DNA of 11,926 bases, taken from the UHGV virus genome UHGV-1578451; one strand, written 5' to 3'. The notes below the pieces were generated by a model. The model made no database searches and was not told where the DNA came from. It saw nothing but the letters and a program-made list of their open reading frames with translations. Each line of letters starts with the position of its first letter. Position 1 is the stretch's first letter. Below are positions 339 to 11,926 of this stretch, piece by piece. Position numbers and translations under genes: made by a program. Source of the stretch: a virus.

Positions 339-1226
339 TCAATTGTCGCCACCAGCCAGTTCTTTATCGTGGGTGAAACTCCCGTTCCAGGTCACCTTCA
401 TCGGAAGCTTCCCTTTCAGATAGTTTTTGTAGATCCAGGTGGCCCCTTCCCGAAGCAGAACCGGCTGATAGGTGGTAAAGCTGACTGCTGAATTTGGAGA
501 GACTTTGCTGCTTTTCTCAGTGAGGTATTTATCACGCGCGTATGACCGGACACGCCATTGTGCGCTGCGTCCTTCCGGATTGTCGTCATATAACCAGTTC
601 ATCGAAACAAGCCAGGCGCTAATTTTTGAGGTATTAACGCCATTCAGACGTTTACAGAACTGTACTGGGGAAAGCCCATCAGTGAAGAGGCTCTCGAGAT
701 GCTCGATATATTCGGCTTGCTGGTGGGTAAGCGCCTCAGCTTGCTGCTTTGCCTCCATGGCATCCGCCCACGCACGCGCCAGGGTTATTGGATCAGACAT
801 ATTCGGCAGCATGACACCGTGGACCTCACGAAGATTGAAGTAATGATCTTCAAGCTGTTCAAAGAAGTCCCAGGCTAATTCGGTTTCAAGCATTTTTGCG
901 TGGCGGGAGGCGCCGCGCTCAGTCCAAAGATAAAGGCTGCGAGCCTTTGATGATATTTGCACACTGCTGAAAGAGTTGCGCAAATTTTCGACTTCATCAC
1001 CCTCAATTCGAAAGTAATGCTTACCCTCAACAAAACGTATTTTATTGCGGTTAAAGTTATTCGTGATGTTTTGCGCTGTTGTACCGTAGCCGCTTGCTAA
1101 AGATTCCGTAGTCACTACGCGCTGATTGCGATAAGTGATCACCGGCACCGATGAGTGATTAACGGAAATTACTGATGAAGTGCTATTTTTGGGCGTAGCA
1201 GTGCCCATAACATGATGATTGCTCAT
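339..1226 (-). CDS. ant: phage antirepressor (ORF6N-type N-terminal domain plus KilA-C/ANT-type C-terminal domain)
   Basis: ORF 339..1331 trimmed to the ATG at 1226, which is preceded by GGAGAG; the 35 codons upstream overlap rusA and look non-coding. N-terminal half carries an ORF6N-like signature (VITYRNQRVVTTESLA...NFNRNKIRFVEGKHYF...LYLWTERGA). C-terminal half (ITLARAWADAMEAKQQAEAL...KISAWLVSMNWLY) resembles the KilA-C/ANT domain. TGA stop at 339-341. Confidence 0.75.
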   Translation of the reverse strand: MSNHHVMGTATPKNSTSSVISVNHSSVPVITYRNQRVVTTESLASGYGTTAQNITNNFNRNKIRFVEGKHYFRIEGDEVENLRNSFSSVQISSKARSLYLWTERGASRHAKMLETELAWDFFEQLEDHYFNLREVHGVMLPNMSDPITLARAWADAMEAKQQAEALTHQQAEYIEHLESLFTDGLSPVQFCKRLNGVNTSKISAWLVSMNWLYDDNPEGRSAQWRVRSYARDKYLTEKSSKVSPNSAVSFTTYQPVLLREGATWIYKNYLKGKLPMKVTWNGSFTHDKELAGGDN

Positions 1227-1312
1227 ATTCTCTCCATACTCTGATTGTTGCGAAGGGCCTGCACGCCCTTTTCGCTTGCACTTTCCGACATTACTGCCAT
1301 AACGACCAATAT

Positions 1313-1711
1313 TCAACCCACAGCTGGACATATAACCACCTCTTTTTTATATGCCGTTATGGTTATCTCAACTTTTCCCTTCGGTACTATCGGTCCCCAT
1401 TCCACCAGCATTCGCTTAATCTGGCTGTCGTCTTCCCAGACACCCGCATGCGTCAGCGCGTCAAACAGGGCTTTGTTGTAATTATCGATATCCCGGCGGC
1501 GCGCATCCGGCGGGTACAGAGTGATTTCTACCGCTGCCAGTTCAGTCGATGGCTTCGGGAGACGTCGTAATTGCTCAATGATCGCCACGCAGGCAGCGCT
1601 CTGGTATTTACGACCATCAGCGCTAATGAGGTGACGACCGGCCAGCGGCCCCTTGTTAGGAGCGCGTCAGTAAGTGTTCACGCTGGGTGGAAATGGGAGT
1701 ATGAGCCTCAT
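1313..1711 (-). pseudogene. rusA: rusA-like Holliday-junction resolvase interrupted by an in-frame TGA at codon 15
   Basis: From ATG 1711-1709 (GGAGG 6 nt upstream) the frame reads MRLILPFPPSVNTY, then TGA at 1669-1667, then continues in the SAME frame as RAPNKGPLAGRHLISADGRKYQSAACVAIIEQL...PDARRRDIDNYNKALFDALTHAGVWEDDSQI...VEITITAYKK to the stop at 1313. Both sides of the TGA match the RusA family (E. coli RusA: ITLPWPPSNNRYYRHNRG...[31 protein letters not shown]), and the TGA sits where homologs have an aromatic residue (probably TGG Trp). The ORF table shows only the 91-aa GTG-1588 restart fragment (1313..1588). Confidence 0.65.
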
Positions 1712-1833
1712 TAAAAGCCTCCGTCATAATTCCTGAAACATACCTCAACTTTCCCGCTATAGTGACGAACACGTTGAACAACATCCGAAATAGGCGCTAT
1801 ACCGGCAGGGCGATAAAAGACTGTTTCACGCAT
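1711..1833 (-). CDS. small hypothetical protein (40 aa), translationally coupled between the methyltransferase gene and rusA
   Basis: ATG 1833-1831 overlaps the upstream stop (ATGCGTGA) and is preceded by AGGGGG at a 7-nt spacing. Encodes MRETVFYRPAGIAPISDVVQRVRHYSGKVEVCFRNYDGGF. Its TAA stop (1713-1711) shares one base with the rusA ATG (TAATG). Below the size cut-off of the ORF table; no homolog recognised. Confidence 0.3.
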   Translation of the reverse strand: MRETVFYRPAGIAPISDVVQRVRHYSGKVEVCFRNYDGGF

Positions 1834-3187
1834 GAGTTACCCCCTGCATGCTGTCGACAAGACCTTGCGCAATTGTGATAATTTCGCTGGTGGCCGTTCG
1901 TTCCAGCCAGAGTTGATTGATGTTGGCTTTCAGCTTGTTCTGCTGTGATTCATCCAGCATGTCAGCGCCGTCTACCTGGTCGAATACAATTCCAACCTCC
2001 AGCGGCCAGATACGGGACTCGGGAAGCGGATCCGCTACTGGTTTAGCTTTCTCACGGATGTGCATGCGGATCTGGCGAATATTGGACCAACTGGAAACAT
2101 CCAGGCTTCCCATAGCTGCAATGAAATCAGTACTGTTCATGCCATATTCACCAGATGCTTCAAGGGCAACAGTCCGAATACGTTCCGACATATCCAAGCG
2201 CGCAGCAGCGTCATCGAATTCAATCGACAACAGCCACTCATCCACACCGAACAAAATACTCTCACGAATAAGCAGCTTCGCTTTGTCGATCGTTAATGGT
2301 GATACCTGAGTGAATTCCGGTGCTTCGACAGAATCCGCCGCCCAGGTATGCCCAAACTTCGATTCACTGAATGTGTATTCTTCTTTATCGCCGAACGCAG
2401 CTCTAACGCATGCCCACGCCTCGACACCGCTGATATCAAAAATATCTTTCTGGGTAAGTGGCAACTCTGCTTCTGGCTTGTCAGCTACAGATGGTGTGAC
2501 AGTTGCAGGTTGAGACTTGCTGACAGCAAATTGCGCCAAAGTCATAAACGCCTGCCCTTTTGCCTCCAGTTCTGTACGGTTGATATAGCTGAACCGCTCA
2601 CCACGCCATGACTTATCAAATACAGCTATGGCACCGGCAAAAAACGCGCTGGTGGGCTTCTGTTTTTCGTCAGCCGGTATAAACCACACAGGCAGATCGA
2701 ACCCAATGCGCCCGCGAATGAATACAATGTGATCGGCATCTTCCGGCCACCACGTTTCACTCGGCGCGGCTTTTATCAGGAATACATAGCGACCGCCCTT
2801 CTCGCGCTGGTCTGCTGCGTACTTCATGATGTGCGTCATACCAGTGATCGCCTGTTTCTCGTGATACTGCGAACGGCTATACGGTGGGTTGCCATAACCA
2901 GCGCCACCCAGTTCTGTAAGACGTTCAGACCAGTCCTGCGTCAGCGCGTTATCTTCGGCGGTGTACCATGCCGGGCATTTCGCGTTGTCGTCGTCAGCAA
3001 ACAAGTCCAGAACTAATGGACCAAATAGCGCGTTGATCCCCCAAAAAAGCAGATCCGGTGTCCGCCACTGATCGCCAACTTCTTTCAATTCGTGAGCTGG
3101 TTTGCTACGCAGTGCCGCCAGCGCCTGGCAATATTTATTGGTATCATGAACGAAACCCCGAATTTTCTGGCAGTGAGTAATCAACAC
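1826..3187 (-). CDS. phage Dam-family N6-adenine DNA methyltransferase fused to an uncharacterised ~300-aa C-terminal domain
   Basis: Continuous minus-strand ORF with TGA stop at 1826-1828. Residues ~97-250 of the maximal ORF carry the phage Dam-family signature: DQWRTPDLLF, LDLFADDDNAKCPAWY, GNPPYS (NPPY catalytic motif), FLIKAAPSETWW, FIRGRIGF. The following ~300 residues (FDKSWRGERFSY...AQGLVDSMQGVTHA) match nothing I recognise. The maximal ORF starts at ATG 3361, but its first 58 codons overlap the 3' end of the O-like gene in another frame and look non-coding. I place the start at GTG 3187 (44-nt overlap with O); TTG 3088 is also possible. No candidate has a good Shine-Dalgarno sequence. 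Confidence 0.75.
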   Translation of the reverse strand: MLITHCQKIRGFVHDTNKYCQALAALRSKPAHELKEVGDQWRTPDLLFWGINALFGPLVLDLFADDDNAKCPAWYTAEDNALTQDWSERLTELGGAGYGNPPYSRSQYHEKQAITGMTHIMKYAADQREKGGRYVFLIKAAPSETWWPEDADHIVFIRGRIGFDLPVWFIPADEKQKPTSAFFAGAIAVFDKSWRGERFSYINRTELEAKGQAFMTLAQFAVSKSQPATVTPSVADKPEAELPLTQKDIFDISGVEAWACVRAAFGDKEEYTFSESKFGHTWAADSVEAPEFTQVSPLTIDKAKLLIRESILFGVDEWLLSIEFDDAAARLDMSERIRTVALEASGEYGMNSTDFIAAMGSLDVSSWSNIRQIRMHIREKAKPVADPLPESRIWPLEVGIVFDQVDGADMLDESQQNKLKANINQLWLERTATSEIITIAQGLVDSMQGVTHA

Positions 3188-4010
3188 TCTGGAAGTTTGC
3201 GCGGCTGGCTGAGTTAGTCTCCCATTTGCCGTTAACGCGTTCAGGCCGGCCAGCACTGGACCATTTGGTCGCGCTTTGCAGGTAACCAGGGAAGTTTTTT
3301 GGAATGAACAGAGTTGCCGGGCGGAGGTATTGCGCCTGCTCGCTATCACGCCAATCGGCATTTTTGTAATCCACTACCAGGCACAGGTCATCAACCGTGA
3401 ATTGTTCCCGAAGACGGGCGCGAATATTCTCCAGCGACGTACTGCATACCTGGTAGCGTGAGCCAGTTGTCTGGTTCAGGTAAGACAAGACCTGTCTGGC
3501 CTGATCAGTAATCACAACCTCAGGGTCTGGTTGCGCAGCAACCGGACAAGAGGGTTTTGAAGTTACTTGTGGATCTTGTTTTGATTTTACTGACGGATCC
3601 CCGCCAGATTCTGACGGGTCAAAACCACCGTTTTTGCCAGATTTCGACGGGTCAGTTTTTGAGGCGTCAAATTTTGATGCGTCAGATTTTGATGTGTCAG
3701 AATCTGACAGTTGAGAAAATGCGGCAGTCTGAAGTTTCGCCACATTCAGGCGATACACGTTCGAAGCATTACGGTTACCATTACGGCGCTGTGTACGCGT
3801 GAGCCAGCCATCTTTTTCAAGCTTTGCGATTGCCGTTCTGATAGTGCTCGGGCCCGCGCCAAGCTGGCGAGCAATAGTTTCAATTGACGGCCAGCACACA
3901 CCTTCATCGCTGCTGAAGTCAGCAAGGCGAGCCATGATCGCAACACTGGACAACTTCATGCCCGACGCTGCGCAACCATCCCATACGTAGCCGGTTAATT
4001 TAGTGCTCAT
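3144..4010 (-). CDS. replication initiation protein, O-like (N-terminal winged-helix DNA-binding domain, repeat linker, C-terminal phage replisome-organiser domain)
   Basis: ATG at 4010, TGA at 3144-3146, 288 aa. N-terminus (SSVAIMARLADFSSDEGVCWPSIETIARQLGAGPSTIRTAIAKLEKDGWLTR) is a winged-helix/HTH of the type seen in phage replication initiators. C-terminus (VITDQARQVLSYLNQTTGSRYQVCSTSLENIRARLREQFTVDDLCLVVDYKNADWRDSEQAQYLRPATLF) resembles the conserved phage replication-protein C-terminal domain. A low-complexity linker between them is encoded by the iteron-like repeats. Position after cro/cII matches lambdoid gene order. Confidence 0.8.
   Translation of the reverse strand: MSTKLTGYVWDGCAASGMKLSSVAIMARLADFSSDEGVCWPSIETIARQLGAGPSTIRTAIAKLEKDGWLTRTQRRNGNRNASNVYRLNVAKLQTAAFSQLSDSDTSKSDASKFDASKTDPSKSGKNGGFDPSESGGDPSVKSKQDPQVTSKPSCPVAAQPDPEVVITDQARQVLSYLNQTTGSRYQVCSTSLENIRARLREQFTVDDLCLVVDYKNADWRDSEQAQYLRPATLFIPKNFPGYLQSATKWSSAGRPERVNGKWETNSASRANFQSVDYSLPENSGFRS
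3585..3713. repeat. iteron-like array of ~15-bp direct repeats inside the O-like gene (putative phage replication origin)
   Basis: Plus-strand units: AGATTCTGACGGGTC (3606-3620), AGATTTCGACGGGTC (3639-3653), AGTTTTTGAGGCGTC (3654-3668), AAATTTTGATGCGTC (3669-3683), AGATTTTGATGTGTC (3684-3698), AGAATCTGACAGTTG (3699-3713), plus a degenerate copy at 3585-3599. An AT-richer stretch (3556-3590) follows in the direction of transcription. Lambda places its ori iterons in the same position, inside the O linker. Confidence 0.55.
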
Positions 4011-4962: not shown

Positions 4963-5157
4963 CTATTTTTTTTCATAAAGCTCAGGGTGAAAAACTAAGC
5001 CACCGCCAGTGCGATATGCCGCTTCAGCAGCCCGACCTTTCGGAATGAGGCGCCCAGGCCTATTGCGCCATTGGTAAACGGCTTCACTGGTAATGCCGAA
5101 AAATTCGGCAACTCTTTCGGCATTGCCAAAGTAATTTTCAATATCGTCAGTTGTCAT
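4963..5157 (-). CDS. cro: Cro-like HTH repressor (YdaS family), first gene of the early-right operon
   Basis: 64 aa, ATG 5157-5155 preceded by AGGAGG. Sequence NAERVAEFFGITSEAVYQWRNRPGRLIPKGRAAEAAYRTGGGLVFHPELY matches the YdaS-type Cro pattern (HTH followed by G-G..HPEL). Transcribed divergently from the CI-like repressor across an 86-bp operator region. Confidence 0.8.
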   Translation of the reverse strand: MTTDDIENYFGNAERVAEFFGITSEAVYQWRNRPGRLIPKGRAAEAAYRTGGGLVFHPELYEKK

Positions 5158-5243: not shown

Positions 5244-5885
5244 GTGAATGGTGCTTCAATGGAAACGGTTGGGCAGCGTATTAAGTCCCTCAGACTGATA
5301 ACTCGAACATCACAGAAAGAGCTTGGGAAGTTCTGCGGAGTGAGTGATGTTGCGGTTGGGTATTGGGAAAAAGATATAAATTTACCGGGTGGGGAATCAC
5401 TGGCGAAACTTGCAAAATTCTTCAATACATCAATTGATTACATCCTATATGGCACCGAATTTGAGGGTAACCTCATTACAAAAATGCGCAGGGTCCCTGT
5501 AATTTCATGGGTTCAAGCTGGTCAATTTACAGAATGTAAGGCTGCTGAAGTTTTCAATGAAGTGGATAAGTGGGTAGAAACGTCCTTAAGGGTTGGCGAT
5601 AGCTCATTCGCGCTGGAAGTTAAAGGGGACTCGATGACAAATCCTAACGGACTTCCCACTATTCCTGAAGGCGCAACCGTGATTGTAGATCCAGATGCAG
5701 AGCCATTTCATGGCAAAATTGTCGTGGCCAGAATAGATGGAACCAACGAAGCGACAGTAAAGAAACTCGTTATTGATGGCCCACAAAAATTTTTAGTCCC
5801 TCTAAATCCACGCTATCCCAACATCCCGATAAATGGTAACTGCCTGATCATCGGCGTCGTCAAAGGCGTTCAATACGAACTTTAA
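5244..5885 (+). CDS. cI: CI-type prophage repressor (N-terminal XRE-type HTH plus C-terminal S24 LexA-like autopeptidase domain)
   Basis: N-terminus QRIKSLRLITRTSQKELGKFCGVSDVAVGYWEKDINLPGGESLAKLAKFF is a classic HTH. C-terminus carries the S24 serine motif GDSM and the downstream Lys pair (VARIDGTNEATVKKL), and a candidate Ala-Gly cleavage site lies in VQAGQF. Divergent from cro. Start is either GTG 5244 or ATG 5259 (METVGQ...). Confidence 0.9.
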   Translation: MNGASMETVGQRIKSLRLITRTSQKELGKFCGVSDVAVGYWEKDINLPGGESLAKLAKFFNTSIDYILYGTEFEGNLITKMRRVPVISWVQAGQFTECKAAEVFNEVDKWVETSLRVGDSSFALEVKGDSMTNPNGLPTIPEGATVIVDPDAEPFHGKIVVARIDGTNEATVKKLVIDGPQKFLVPLNPRYPNIPINGNCLIIGVVKGVQYEL

Positions 5886-7203: not shown

Positions 7204-8121
7204 ATGAATAATCCGTTTTTCAAAAATATGTTGGTGTACCGCCTTAGTCGCGATTTCACCATCAACCAGGAAGAGCTGGAACAGCAGCTTGAACTATTTC
7301 GCTTCACTCCATGCGGTAGCCAGGATATGGCAAAAACCGGTTGGGTATCACCACTGGGTCAGCGGTCAGATTGCTTGCATCACACTGTCAATAATCAAGT
7401 GTTGTTGGTTATTCGCCGGGAAGAAAAAATACTGCCATCTCCTGTCATTGCTGAAGAACTACGCCAGCGTGTGGCGCGTCTGGAATCCGATCAGGGGCGT
7501 CGCCTCAAAAAAACTGAGAAAGATTCGCTGCGTGATGAAGTGTTGCACTCCCTGCTTCCTCGGGCGTTCTCCAAAAACTCGACTGTTAGTTTGTGGATCA
7601 ACATCACCGACGGTCTGATCATGGTTGATGCTGCCAGCGCCAAACGTGCCGAAGACTCACTGGCCCTGCTTCGTAAAACTCTCGGTTCTCTCCCGGTGGT
7701 ACCGCTGACTATGGAAGCGCCGATCGAACTAACTATGACCGACTGGGTTCGTTCTGGTAGTGCGCCTGCTGGCTTTGGCCTGGGTGATGAAGCCGAACTG
7801 AAAGCCATTCTTGAAAATGGCGGTATCGGACGCTTTAAAAAACAGGCTCTGGTCAGCGACGAAATTCATGTGCATCTGGAAGCTGGCAAAGTAGTTACAA
7901 AGCTGTCTATCGACTGGCAACAGCGCATTCAGTTCGTTCTTTGCGATGACGGCAGCATCAAGCGCCTTAAGTTCTCTGATGAGCTGACAGAACAAAACGA
8001 CGATATCGACCGTGAGGATGCGGCTCAGCGGTTCGACGCTGACTTTGTTCTGATGACCGGCGAGCTTATCTCTCTCATTAACGGATTAACAACCTCTCTC
8101 GGCGGCGAAGCCAAGCGATAA
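7204..8121 (+). CDS. rdgC: recombination-associated protein RdgC homolog (phage-borne)
   Basis: 305 aa, ATG 7204 preceded by GAGGAA. Closely resembles E. coli RdgC along its whole length ([144 protein letters not shown]) but is clearly diverged from the chromosomal copy as I remember it. Confidence 0.9.
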
Positions 8122-8229
8122 ACACCAGGCAACAATTACCCCCATAAGCATGGGTTGGGTTGCTGCACGCTAAATTCAGCAATTCATTAATTTAATGGCG
8201 CGGTGCAGCGCGCCAATATGGAGAAAACC

Positions 8230-8769
8230 ATGAGCTACATTCAGACATTATCCGGCAAACATTTTAATTACCTCGATATCCAACAGGACGATATCGTGAT
8301 CGAAGATATCGCTACCGCGTTGTCTCATATCTGCCGCTTTGCAGGGCATCTTCCTGAGTTTTACAGCGTCGGCCAACATAGCGTTTTAACCAGCCACCTC
8401 GTTCCGCAGGAGTTTGCATTAGAAGCCCTGCTTCATGATGCCGCCGAAGCCTACCTGCAGGATATACCCTCACCGCTTAAGCGCCTGTTACCTGATTACC
8501 AGGTGATCGAAGCTCGCGTAGACGCAGCTATTCGCCAGAAATTTGGCCTACCGACGGGGCAACACCCAACCGTGAAATATGCCGATCTGGTGATGCTTGC
8601 CAGCGAACGCCGCGATTTTGAGATTGACGAAGGTTCCATTTGGCCATGCCTCGAGGGAGTTGTCCCAACGGATTTATTCATTATCAACCCAGTTCGTCCT
8701 GGCCAGTCATACGGCATGTTCATCAATCGCTTTAACGAATTGATGGAGCAGCGCCAATGCGCCGCATGA
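8230..8769 (+). CDS. HD-domain phosphohydrolase (YfbR-like 5'-deoxynucleotidase type)
   Basis: Start placed at ATG 8230, preceded by GGAG at a 6-nt spacing (the ORF table starts at GTG 8203). HD-superfamily metal-binding motifs are present: H..R...GH (ALSHICRFAGH), the HD dyad in EALLHDAAEAYLQDIP, and a downstream D (ADLVMLASERRDFE). Confidence 0.75.
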   Translation: MSYIQTLSGKHFNYLDIQQDDIVIEDIATALSHICRFAGHLPEFYSVGQHSVLTSHLVPQEFALEALLHDAAEAYLQDIPSPLKRLLPDYQVIEARVDAAIRQKFGLPTGQHPTVKYADLVMLASERRDFEIDEGSIWPCLEGVVPTDLFIINPVRPGQSYGMFINRFNELMEQRQCAA

Positions 8770-8933
8770 AGGTAAAAGAACTCGTAGCGGAGGCGTTTGC
8801 CTCCGTTGCTGAATTGCCACCAAAGCATGCACTGCTTATGCGCGAAGTCGCCACCAGACTGGACGCTACGTTCGCAGCATTAAAAGAGTCTCTGGTGCAA
8901 CTGGAACAGGAACGTAAAGGTAAAACGCCATGA
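8766..8933 (+). CDS. small hypothetical protein (55 aa), translationally coupled
   Basis: ATG 8766 overlaps the HD-gene stop (ATGA) and the TGA at 8931-8933 overlaps the next ATG (ATGA). Encodes MKVKELVAEAFASVAELPPKHALLMREVATRLDATFAALKESLVQLEQERKGKTP. Below the ORF-table cut-off. Confidence 0.45.
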   Translation: MKVKELVAEAFASVAELPPKHALLMREVATRLDATFAALKESLVQLEQERKGKTP

Positions 8934-9184
8934 CCGTATTTGAATATCTCCAGGCTCATCCGAATACCACCAGCGGTGAAATCGCCAAAGGTATGAACAA
9001 AAAGACACCCGCGGTCGCTGGCGCATTATCGCAACTCTATGGCACCGGCCGGATCGTGAAGTCTGGTGTTCGCAAGGGCATTCCAACATACCGTGTTAAC
9101 GATATGCCGTTTGGGTGCAGTAACAGCCTAACCATGATGTTTAACCAGCTATTAAACACAGCCAGAAAGGGAGCAGCACAATGA
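8930..9184 (+). CDS. hypothetical small phage protein, winged-helix-like
   Basis: 84 aa; ATGA overlaps at both ends. TSGEIAKGMNKKTPAVAGALSQLYGTGRIV looks like an HTH / winged-helix recognition segment. No family assigned. Confidence 0.6.
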   Translation: MTVFEYLQAHPNTTSGEIAKGMNKKTPAVAGALSQLYGTGRIVKSGVRKGIPTYRVNDMPFGCSNSLTMMFNQLLNTARKGAAQ

Positions 9185-9525
9185 GTAAATCTCTGAACGC
9201 ACGTTGCATCCGTCGCTGGACCGTCGAATTTAAAGACCTCTGCGACTCGAAACACAGTCCGTACTGGCGTAAGCACCACCTTCGCAGTTACATCCGGGAA
9301 TGTGCCCTGACTACCGCTGATTGCATGGTAGAGCGTATGGCAGAGGATAATGCGATGGTAGATTTTCAGGAGACTAATCGAGGGTGGTCGCCGGAGTTCT
9401 CTGCCTGGTACCACGAACGCCGTGAACAGTATCTCAAAGAAGCTCGTGACTATCTGAACGAAGACGCCACCAATGACGAGATCGACGAGGAAATCCAGAA
9501 CGAGCTGGAGGCCTGGAATGACTAA
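9181..9525 (+). CDS. hypothetical phage protein with acidic C-terminus
   Basis: 114 aa; ATG 9181 overlaps the previous stop (ATGA) and is preceded by AGGGAG. C-terminus is strongly acidic (NEDATNDEIDEEIQNELEAWND). No family recognised. Confidence 0.6.
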   Translation: MSKSLNARCIRRWTVEFKDLCDSKHSPYWRKHHLRSYIRECALTTADCMVERMAEDNAMVDFQETNRGWSPEFSAWYHERREQYLKEARDYLNEDATNDEIDEEIQNELEAWND

Positions 9526-9991
9526 CAGCCCAATGACAGCACTCAACAAACAGGCGCTGCGCAAATTAGCAACTGATGCGCACGAGCTTGGCATCATCAA
9601 GCGTTACACGAAAGGCATCGAGGCTAATAAGAGATTCGTTGCCATCGCTACTCCTTTGACTTTTCTGGCGCTACTGGATGAGCTGGAAGCCGCAGAGAAG
9701 CGCATAGCAGAACTGGAGGCGAATAAGGGTAAGCCAGTGATGTTTATTGATGGCGATATCTCCGCATCTGACGCCGAGAAACTTGCAGAAGTTATTCGTG
9801 AAATGGGACGACGCACCAGCGCCTGCATTACAGGAGGAAATGGAAGTCGGGAAGTGGCGGTGAAACAATTCGATGACTTCCAGATTGTCCACTATGGCGC
9901 TACCGAGGATTACGCGAAAGGTTATATAGACTGCCAGAACAACTACAACAAAGCGCTTGCCGCCGCTGGCATTGGCGTGAAGGGGGAGTGA
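9517..9991 (+). CDS. hypothetical phage protein with central coiled-coil segment (possibly Ead/Ea22-like)
   Basis: Start placed at ATG 9517 (GGAGG 7 nt upstream; overlaps the previous gene by 8 nt); the ORF table starts at GTG 9473. ALLDELEAAEKRIAELEANKGK is a coiled-coil motif that I associate with Ea22-like early-left proteins; this is recalled, not searched. Confidence 0.6.
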
Positions 9992-9994
9992 GAG

Positions 9995-10270
9995 ATGAGC
10001 AAATTTACAGACGTACATGACCTGTTAACCGCGTACCAGAAACAAGCTCGTAAGATACCACCTAAGGGTGTTTATGCCTCAAGACATCGGCAGGTTGAGG
10101 TAAACGCGGCCCACGTGCGAAAGATAATGCGTAAGCGTCGGCGGTCAGTCGGCAAGTCAAATAAACTCGGATGTCGCTTTACGGCGGAAATGCGCGTAGC
10201 ACTGATTTGCGATATGAATTTTTGGGCTCTGGTATGTCGCTCTAACCGTAATCAGGAGCATGCATCATGA
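9995..10270 (+). CDS. hypothetical small basic phage protein
   Basis: 91 aa; ATG 9995 is preceded by GGGGAG. Its TGA stop (10268-10270) overlaps the next ATG (ATGA). Basic stretch KIMRKRRRSVGK. No family recognised. Confidence 0.55.
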   Translation: MSKFTDVHDLLTAYQKQARKIPPKGVYASRHRQVEVNAAHVRKIMRKRRRSVGKSNKLGCRFTAEMRVALICDMNFWALVCRSNRNQEHAS

Positions 10271-11019
10271 CAACTAACCACCCGGCGCACGGTCCTGTAT
10301 CACTCGAGCGCCTGCACCAGATAAGCGAAATACTCAGCAAAGCAGCAGCACAAAGCGACGGCGGTAATCTCGGCTACGCAATGGCTGATGCAGTGAAGGT
10401 TATTGATGGGGCTATTGCAGCGTTTAGCTCTGAGCCACAACGAAACCCTGTGTTGACCTATGCGGATAGTTATCGCGATATGGCTGAGCGCGGAGTTGAA
10501 TCTATCCCGGTCTGGAGCGTAATAATTGACCTTGAAAGAAACATCGCTCCACTCTACACCGCCCCGCCAGCGCCGGTAGTGCCAACGTTCGATGAATGGC
10601 TGGCAATTCGCGGTGATAAGCCACTTGGTTGGGTTAAAGACGCGATGCGTGAATCGTATGATGCTTGCCGCGCCGCCATGCTTCAGCATGATCCAGTTTG
10701 CACATGCCCTAGTGGTGACGGTTCGCTACGCTGGCCGTGTCCGGTGCATCCTGGCAACTCTCCGGTTACTCCGGATGGTTGGGCTTTGGTGCCTAAGAGG
10801 CTAACCGCCGAGAACGGCGCAAAGGGTGTGCTGTCCGGTGAGTTTTCAGAAACGAAATTTATAAACTGCCCAGAGTGTTTTGGTGATGATGAATGCGAAA
10901 CATGCGACGGCAGCGGTCGAATTGAGATAACAGTGCCAGTCAGTTGGACGAACATCAAGGCCATTTGGGCTAAAGGTGTCGAGCATTTCGAAGCAGCACC
11001 TCAGCAGGAGAATGTATAA
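10267..11019 (+). CDS. hypothetical phage protein with C-terminal DnaJ-type CxxCxGxG zinc-finger motifs
   Basis: 250 aa; ATG 10267 is preceded by AGGAG. C-terminal cysteine cluster CTCPSGDG...WPCPVHPG...CPECFGDDECETCDGSGR contains paired CxxC(xGxG) units typical of zinc ribbons / DnaJ-like zinc fingers. Confidence 0.65.
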   Translation: MTTNHPAHGPVSLERLHQISEILSKAAAQSDGGNLGYAMADAVKVIDGAIAAFSSEPQRNPVLTYADSYRDMAERGVESIPVWSVIIDLERNIAPLYTAPPAPVVPTFDEWLAIRGDKPLGWVKDAMRESYDACRAAMLQHDPVCTCPSGDGSLRWPCPVHPGNSPVTPDGWALVPKRLTAENGAKGVLSGEFSETKFINCPECFGDDECETCDGSGRIEITVPVSWTNIKAIWAKGVEHFEAAPQQENV

Positions 11020-11593
11020 CGTGAACAATTTAATGATCGACCTTGAGTCTATGGGCAAAAAACCGAATGCCCCTATCGTCTCCATTGGTGCCGTGTTCTT
11101 CGATCCGCAAAGCGGTGAACTGGGTCAGGAGTTTTACACCGCCGTTAACCTTGAAAGCGCTATGGAGCAGGGAGCGGTGCCGGATGGTGACACTATTCTG
11201 TGGTGGTTAAGACAAAGCTCAGAAGCACGATCAGCAATCTGTGTTGATGATGCGATGCCGATATCGTCTGCCCTATCTGAACTGAGCCATTTCATTAATC
11301 GGCATTCTGATAACCCAAAATATTTAAAAGTTTGGGGCAATGGAGCTACTTTCGACAACGTTATATTGCGCGGCGCATATGAGCGCGCCGGCCAAGTTTG
11401 CCCGTGGCAATTTTGGAACGATCACGACGTCAGAACTATCGTCACATTAGGCAGAGTGGTGGGTTTCGATCCAAAGCGAGATATGCCATTCGATGGGGTT
11501 GCACATAACGCACTGGCCGATGCGCGACATCAAGCAAAATACGTGTCCGCGATCTGGCAGAAGTTGATTCCGGCCACCAGCAGCGACCTGTAA
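11012..11593 (+). CDS. DEDDh-family 3'-5' exonuclease
   Basis: Exo I motif MIDLESMG, Exo II motif VWGNGATFDNVIL, Exo III motif GVAHNALADARHQAKY (H-x4-D). Start is ambiguous: ATG 11012 (AGGAGA immediately upstream), GTG 11021 or ATG 11033; the ORF table gives GTG 10976. Confidence 0.8.
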   Translation: MYNVNNLMIDLESMGKKPNAPIVSIGAVFFDPQSGELGQEFYTAVNLESAMEQGAVPDGDTILWWLRQSSEARSAICVDDAMPISSALSELSHFINRHSDNPKYLKVWGNGATFDNVILRGAYERAGQVCPWQFWNDHDVRTIVTLGRVVGFDPKRDMPFDGVAHNALADARHQAKYVSAIWQKLIPATSSDL

Positions 11594-11631
11594 TTTCCCC
11601 TGGGTGCAGCCAGGTTGTATGGAGAATGTCT

Positions 11632-11904
11632 ATGAATACTTTGTTTTTACTTATGGCTGAGTTCAACACGCCTAACATCGAGCTGTCAGCTGTATGCCAA
11701 AAGTATTTCGGTATGAGCCCTAACACAGCAGAAGCGAAAGCAAATGCCTGTCAGTTACCTATCCCAACTTATCGTGTAGGAACATCGCAGAAAGCAAAGC
11801 GCTGCATCAACATTCAGGATCTTGCTGAGTATATAGACCAGCGGCGTGAAGAAGGCAGAATTGAATGGGAAAGAGTCAGAACGAACAAACAGAAAAATAG
11901 TTGA
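11632..11904 (+). CDS. PrtN-family small DNA-binding protein in the excisionase position
   Basis: Start placed at ATG 11632 (GGAGA 6 nt upstream), giving MNTLFLLMAEFNTPNIELSAVCQKYFGMSPNTAEAKANACQLPIPTYRVGTSQKAKRCINIQDLAEYIDQRR. The MNT.FLLMA N-terminus and overall pattern match the pyocin-activator PrtN family as I recall it. It is the last gene before the expected integrase just outside the window. Confidence 0.6.
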   Translation: MNTLFLLMAEFNTPNIELSAVCQKYFGMSPNTAEAKANACQLPIPTYRVGTSQKAKRCINIQDLAEYIDQRREEGRIEWERVRTNKQKNS

Positions 11905-11926
11905 GTTCCGCACCGATAAAAAAAGA

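Follow-up and report, generated by a model that had tools for sequence, protein, structure and literature searches.

A nonsense codon in rusA, a resolvase gene carried by a lambdoid prophage of Citrobacter freundii-complex bacteria: evidence for a recent, lineage-specific lesion

The closest described counterpart of the gene studied here is RusA of Escherichia coli K-12, a Holliday-junction resolvase encoded by the DLP12 prophage (PDB 1Q8R, 2H8C, 2H8E). The active sites of RusA form only on dimerisation, roles have been assigned to its catalytic residues D70, D72, K76 and D91, and the K-12 gene suppresses ruv defects only when its transcription has been activated by insertion (PMC10956419). 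While K-12 rusA has an intact frame that is not transcribed (PMC10956419), the rusA gene described here has a good Shine-Dalgarno (SD) sequence and a nonsense codon; both can be regarded as prophage-borne resolvase genes in a cryptic or poorly expressed state. The two products belong to the same Pfam family (PF05866), align over their whole length with 42% identity and keep all four catalytic residues, and K-12 RusA carries Tyr18 at the site that corresponds to the interrupted codon 15. Closer relatives of the same type have intact genes. The copies on an ENA scaffold (L108), in E. coli 1943 (WP_000780154.1) and in Salmonella phage ST64B (sb45) share 87-99.7% nucleotide identity with the sequence analysed here, occupy the same operon slot (dam to antirepressor-like gene, 5' of DUF968 and Q) and encode 128-132 aa with TGG at codon 15, where our sequence has TGA.

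The leaky UGA of the phage Q-beta coat/A1 gene is read by tRNA-Trp. In E. coli K-12, Trp-tRNA(Trp) and RF2 compete at UGA, with reporter read-through of ~2% at 37 °C and ~4% at 25 °C (PMC10570021), and a C at the +4 position, above all after UGA, gives inefficient termination in bacteria, tRNA-Trp being able to misread UGA in E. coli (PMC5289835). The event that would be predicted at the UGA described here, competition of Trp-tRNA(Trp) with RF2 in a weak context, is the same as in both of these systems. However, the Q-beta site is conserved and functional and the K-12 site belongs to an engineered reporter (PMC10570021), whereas the present UGA is a private, unconserved mutation with no stimulatory element.

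Here we analyse a stretch of 11,926 nucleotides of viral DNA (the window) in which the rusA frame contains an in-frame TGA at codon 15. We consider it very probable that this codon represents a genuine, recent and lineage-specific W15* mutation (TGG to TGA) in rusA of a Citrobacter freundii-complex lambdoid prophage, predicted to yield a null or strongly hypomorphic allele. W15* is an ordinary gene-inactivating mutation that involves no new coding mechanism, both the gene family and the type of lesion being known.

Operon context and the interrupted reading frame

The window comprises the part of a lambdoid temperate phage genome that holds its immunity and early genes. Its early-right operon contains, in order, cro, a CII-like gene (YmfL), DUF4222, a replication gene, dam, a 40-aa ORF, rusA and an ORF6N antirepressor gene, followed on adjoining contigs by DUF968, antiterminator Q, holins and a GH19 endolysin (coordinates of features are summarized in Table 1). 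Proteins identical to the RdgC and replication proteins of the window are named from the C. freundii complex and, in some cases, from E. coli. The operon is tightly packed around rusA: the TAA of the 40-codon ORF overlaps the rusA ATG (TAATG), the ATG of this ORF lies just 5' of the dam stop codon, and the start of the ORF6N gene overlaps the 3' end of rusA by 19 nt (1313-1331). The start of the ORF6N gene used here is that of the longest ORF; since RefSeq gives close homologs as 289-295 aa, its true position is uncertain. The 40-codon ORF has no match in Pfam. It is missing from E. coli 1943 and some other relatives, in which dam overlaps rusA directly, and the dam-rusA junction is thus a mosaic breakpoint.

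Table 1. Features of the window, with strand and the basis on which each was assigned
Feature	Coordinates	Strand	Basis
ORF6N/KilAC antirepressor-like gene, 330 aa, ATG 1331	339..1331	-	own SD GAGGTGG, -8.2 kcal/mol
rusA frame, 132 codons plus stop, broken at codon 15	1313..1711	-	translation, PF05866, 1Q8R match
91-aa GTG-started ORF, beginning within helix alpha1 at residue 42	1313..1588	-	ORF; anti-SD pairing -2.1 kcal/mol
Catalytic region, intact	1427..1492	-	invariant alignment columns
W15*, in-frame TGA at codon 15	1667..1669	-	sequence and comparison with TGG relatives
14 codons before the stop, MRLILPFPPSVNTY: strand beta1 and most of the PPSxNxYW motif	1670..1711	-	translation, motif conservation, secondary structure of intact homolog
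rusA Shine-Dalgarno GGAGG, 6 nt 5' of ATG	1718..1722	-	sequence; anti-SD duplex -9.5 kcal/mol
Conserved 40-codon ORF between dam and rusA, MRETVFYRPAGIAPISDVVQRVRHYSGKVEVCFRNYDGGF	1711..1833	-	exact product called in 61 collection blocks
dam, phage N6-adenine methyltransferase, gene upstream of rusA	1826..3147	-	PF05869 match
Phg_2220_C replication protein	3144..4010	-
P22-type Cro	4963..5157	-
CII/CP76-like YmfL protein; DUF4222		-
LexA-type CI repressor	5244..5885	+
HTH_17 protein		+
RdgC	7204..8121	+

The minus-strand rusA frame runs from ATG at 1711..1709 through MRLILPFPPSVNTY to TGA at 1669..1667, and continues as RAPNKGPLAGRHLISADGRK... to the terminal TGA at 1315..1313 without any change of frame. 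Both coordinates and peptide agree exactly with the original prediction, made from the letters alone, of an in-frame TGA at codon 15 with no frame shift, and the proposed restart codon, GTG 1588, is likewise present together with its 91-aa ORF. The altered base is position 1667 of the window (T on the plus strand, A on the coding strand), and the base following the codon-15 TGA is C, giving the stop signal UGA-C.

When Trp was restored at codon 15, the translation matched the Pfam RusA profile (PF05866) over residues 6-118 (profile 1-123/124) with 58.4 bits, relative to a cut-off of 22.8 bits; since this match runs across codon 15, the homology spans the stop, as had been proposed, and does so well beyond chance. 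The 91-aa fragment alone scored 51 bits. An intact homolog (P0001; 97% identical) matched the E. coli RusA structure 1Q8R over residues 3-121 (E = 6.4e-17), and identities between the window rusA and intact homologs ranged from 87 to 98%. The AlphaFold model of a 97%-identical intact homolog is a confident alpha/beta fold (pLDDT 91.3) composed of beta1 (2-6), a turn helix (11-14), alpha1 (31-48), beta2 (59-66), alpha2 (75-89), beta3 (98-105) and beta4 (113-120). The catalytic region had been described as intact, and the alignment bears this out: D74 (1492..1490), D76 (1486..1484), K80 (1474..1472) and D95 (1429..1427) of the window correspond to D70, D72, K76 and D91 of E. coli RusA. What the gene lacks, owing to the TGA at codon 15, is a full-length uninterrupted reading frame. 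Judged from sequence, the locus is a rusA-family (PF05866) Holliday-junction resolvase gene by descent and would now be a pseudogene or a hypomorphic allele.

Ancestral codon and distribution of the TGA allele

To identify the residue replaced by the stop, P0001 was searched against 1.84 billion cluster representatives, and the best 150 hits together with E. coli RusA were aligned to it. Position 15 was aromatic in every one of the 125 representatives that covered the site (W 111, Y 12, F 2), and in the same alignment it falls within the near-invariant motif P-[FWY]-P-P-S-x-N-x-Y-W-R. The nearest annotated relatives (E. coli 1943, E. coli C3728 and sb45 of Salmonella phage ST64B) have TGG at codon 15 and identical codons on either side of it. 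The closest allele is that of L108 (ENA ERZ28659166, a 97-kb scaffold). Over 4331 nt this scaffold shows 2 mismatches and 1 gap relative to the window, and position 1667 is the sole difference within rusA. Taken together, the near-identity of L108 and the aromatic conservation indicate that the residue lost to the stop is aromatic, in most cases Trp, and that a single G-to-A transition at 1667 accounts for the change; the conserved Trp and the single TGG-to-TGA transition that had been anticipated were thus both recovered.

Relatives were gathered in several ways. A pattern neutral with respect to TGG or TGA retrieved 93 IMG/VR contigs and two GTDB species-representative genomes (both Citrobacter, with TGG), and a phage database search returned only 87%-identical ST64B-like matches, every one of them intact. 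The GTDB representatives do not include the genome from which the window derives. Contigs fetched through exact copies of the rusA neighbours in the window (the 40-aa ORF and the 330-aa ORF6N protein) had an intact rusA at all 15 places among the matches listed. Codon 15 was TGG in 99 of 99 rusA copies collected before the 91-aa product was looked up; over all 120 loci it was TGG in 113 and TGA in five, and two loci did not cover it. It should be noted that the five TGA copies came from a query biased to the TGA allele; the 113 TGG relatives were fetched by the TGG/TGA-neutral pattern, by DNA similarity or by identical neighbouring genes, regardless of codon 15.

When the 91-aa GTG-started product was looked up by exact match, nine contigs were obtained; a TGA-specific scan of JGI metagenome contigs gave no matches. 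Among the matches listed, five of seven contigs with the 91-aa product bear the identical TGA in DNA that is 99.9-100% identical to the window (L099, ENA ERZ27276100; L100, Logan ERR15871937; L102, ERZ783428; L103, ERZ784152; L104, ERZ27276180). At least three submissions are represented among these five assemblies, whose contigs are named in MEGAHIT, SPAdes and Logan styles. Contig L101 begins three bases before GTG 1588, with codon 15 falling outside it. In L105 (ENA ERZ650260, a 702-bp contig at ~1.7x coverage) the sequence 5' of about rusA codon 26 is unrelated, which accounts for a 91-aa call in which codon 15 is not visible; this contig is probably a chimeric low-coverage assembly. The carriers may all stem from one circulating bacterial clone, and they therefore establish the allele as real rather than as one that has arisen or spread repeatedly. 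On these comparisons, the TGA allele is real, recent and limited to one nearly clonal prophage lineage, in keeping with the earlier impression of a recent lesion.

The window carries a further difference from its relatives, in the gene upstream of rusA. One nucleotide is missing immediately 3' of the dam start codon, around 3142/3143, where relatives read ATGATGACC and the window reads ATGATACC. In the relatives, dam begins as ATGATGACCAAT (MMTN...), its ATGA overlapping the stop codon of the replication gene; in the window, the native ATG at 3147 is followed by a stop after 20 codons, and the remainder of dam is out of frame. The dam frame stays open for 72 codons upstream, inside the replication gene, resulting in an apparent 511-aa ORF (1826..3361) with no SD-preceded start. 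The deletion is private to the window, being absent from the TGA carriers L099 and L102 and from L108, all three of which have an intact 440-aa Dam, and it represents either a second lesion, in the form of further prophage decay, or an assembly indel.

Consequences of the stop and competing explanations

For the first 118 codons of rusA, dN/dS had a median of 0.07 in comparisons with 68 distinct alleles whose dS exceeded 0.05, which indicates strong purifying selection and a gene that is normally maintained. Occasional loss is nevertheless found in the same family. One IMG/VR prophage contig (L011) has a 1-nt deletion at rusA codon 29, changing CTCATTAGC to CTCAT-AGC, and two others (L044 and L051) both terminate prematurely at codon 90 without any indel. 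These inactivations are independent and differ from W15* in both site and type, and occasional loss is thus normal and a broken prophage rusA unexceptional. As expected of a recent pseudogene, the window allele lies one step from the intact and otherwise identical allele of L108, in a family under purifying selection.

The strong SD and ATG would be expected to load ribosomes efficiently, with RF2 freeing a 14-residue peptide at the UGA, such that most RusA would be lost and the gene would behave as a pseudogene or strong hypomorph. The sole plausible source of active enzyme would be near-cognate decoding of the UGA by Trp-tRNA(Trp), which the weak UGA-C termination context would favour. Given that the ancestral residue is Trp, such read-through would be expected to regenerate wild-type RusA, to no more than about one percent of the normal level. 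The RF2 of E. coli K-12 is an unusually weak variant (Thr246), and read-through in Citrobacter is therefore probably lower than reporter values obtained in K-12. The leaky context is itself a common feature and is not diagnostic. Loss of rusA may be tolerated because RusA is accessory in the phage and the host has junction resolvases of its own. Weaker translational coupling, or Rho-dependent polarity, acting on the genes toward Q is a conceivable further effect of W15*.

Several other explanations were weighed against a genuine inactivating mutation. If the TGA were a sequencing or assembly error, the true codon would be TGG and the gene intact. A single base does separate the window from the intact L108 allele, and the private indel at the dam start, found in no related contig, leaves the base-level accuracy of the window open to doubt; however, recovery of the same TGA in five assemblies, which trace to three or more submissions and to different assemblers, argues against a one-off error, L104 has since gained an extra synonymous change (ACG to ACA at 1451, Thr87) while keeping the TGA, and the lesion is a substitution rather than a homopolymer indel, all of which makes an error very improbable. 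Similar reasoning applies to programmed recoding, whether by selenocysteine insertion or stimulated read-through, and to a naturally split gene with a conserved downstream start. While UGA-C is the weakest bacterial stop context and tRNA-Trp would give back the native residue, no stop was found at codon 15 in any of the 113 informative relatives outside the 99.9-100% identical lineage, and no diverged homolog was therefore seen to carry the conserved stop that, according to the original prediction, would point to natural splitting. Moreover, a comparison of the window with Rfam at E <= 1 gave neither a SECIS element nor any other family, the predicted fold of the 70 nt that start with the UGA is no more stable than that of shuffled controls (z = -0.08), the bases around codon 15 are the same in the window and in its TGG sister L108, which indicates that no accompanying recoding element has evolved, and GTG 1588 lacks an SD. 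We thus consider recoding or natural splitting extremely unlikely. A genetic code in which UGA specifies Trp was considered separately and rejected, given that rusA and the replication gene themselves end in TGA (the latter in the ATGA overlap) and that the host group is the Enterobacteriaceae.

Two further explanations accept the mutation as real and differ as to its outcome. Re-initiation at GTG 1588 would produce a 91-aa fragment of RusA, the ORF of which is open, keeps all catalytic residues, still scores well against the RusA profile and is annotated by gene callers. A functional product of this kind is, in our estimation, very improbable. Pairing of GTG 1588 with the anti-SD is weak in comparison with that of the native ATG (-2.1 vs -9.5 kcal/mol), 78 nt separate the codon from the stop, and the frame offers no better-placed ATG, GTG or TTG. 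Furthermore, a start at residue 42 falls inside alpha1 and would omit 11 of the 18 residues of this helix, together with beta1 of the four-stranded sheet and the near-invariant PPSxNxYWR turn; combined with the dimerisation on which RusA active sites depend (PMC10956419), these losses make a functional restart product unlikely. Restart would accordingly be an improbable event, and its product should not fold. The TGA could, alternatively, act as an attenuator under selection, the leaky UGA-C being kept because a trace of wild-type RusA (~percent or less) benefits the lysogen or the phage. Low amounts of RusA suffice to suppress ruv defects, the TGA allele persists in several samples, and the read-through product would be the exact wild-type protein. 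The requirement of K-12 rusA for insertion-activated transcription in ruv suppression (PMC10956419) is a further point in favour of attenuation. Against it, the carriers belong to a single, almost clonal lineage, with neither recurrence nor spread of the allele seen, all the remaining alleles are intact and evolve under purifying selection, and a hitch-hiking neutral or mildly deleterious mutation offers a simpler account, such that we regard selected attenuation as unlikely. With respect to the three outcomes originally proposed for the allele, inactivation, accompanied by low-level UGA read-through at most, is thus favoured, while the 91-aa restart product is disfavoured.

Annotation and minor observations

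The gene callers used on other assemblies report the TGA allele as a 91-aa gene. We suggest that the locus be annotated as a rusA pseudogene (W15*) rather than as a 91-aa 'hypothetical protein'. Because an intact sister allele that differs by a single base has been found, W15* represents a clean and very recent nonsense allele, and it could be used as a natural test case either for UGA-to-Trp read-through in Enterobacteriaceae or for the dispensability of RusA in lambdoid prophages. Beyond annotation it has little importance, and it opens no new question.

Elsewhere in the window, the early-left operon (8203-11926, plus strand), located 3' of rdgC, contains several ORFs for which Pfam gives weak matches or none; for the ORF at 8203..8769 (plus strand) the one match, YfbR-like, is weak and falls below the cut-off, and there is none for that at 10267..11019. 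This segment is mosaic with respect to relatives, with identities of 82-97% in patches.

A number of the RusA homologs recovered (P0002-P0005, P0009-P0020, P0032 and others) are 202-212 aa in length and consist of an N-terminal LexA winged-helix domain fused to a full RusA domain. In the one whose layout was checked (P0004), PF01726 covers residues 1-65 and the RusA domain residues 86-199. The named sources of these fusions are Kluyvera cryocrescens and a Klebsiella sp., and a resolvase joined to a LexA-type DNA-binding domain may be worth a separate look.
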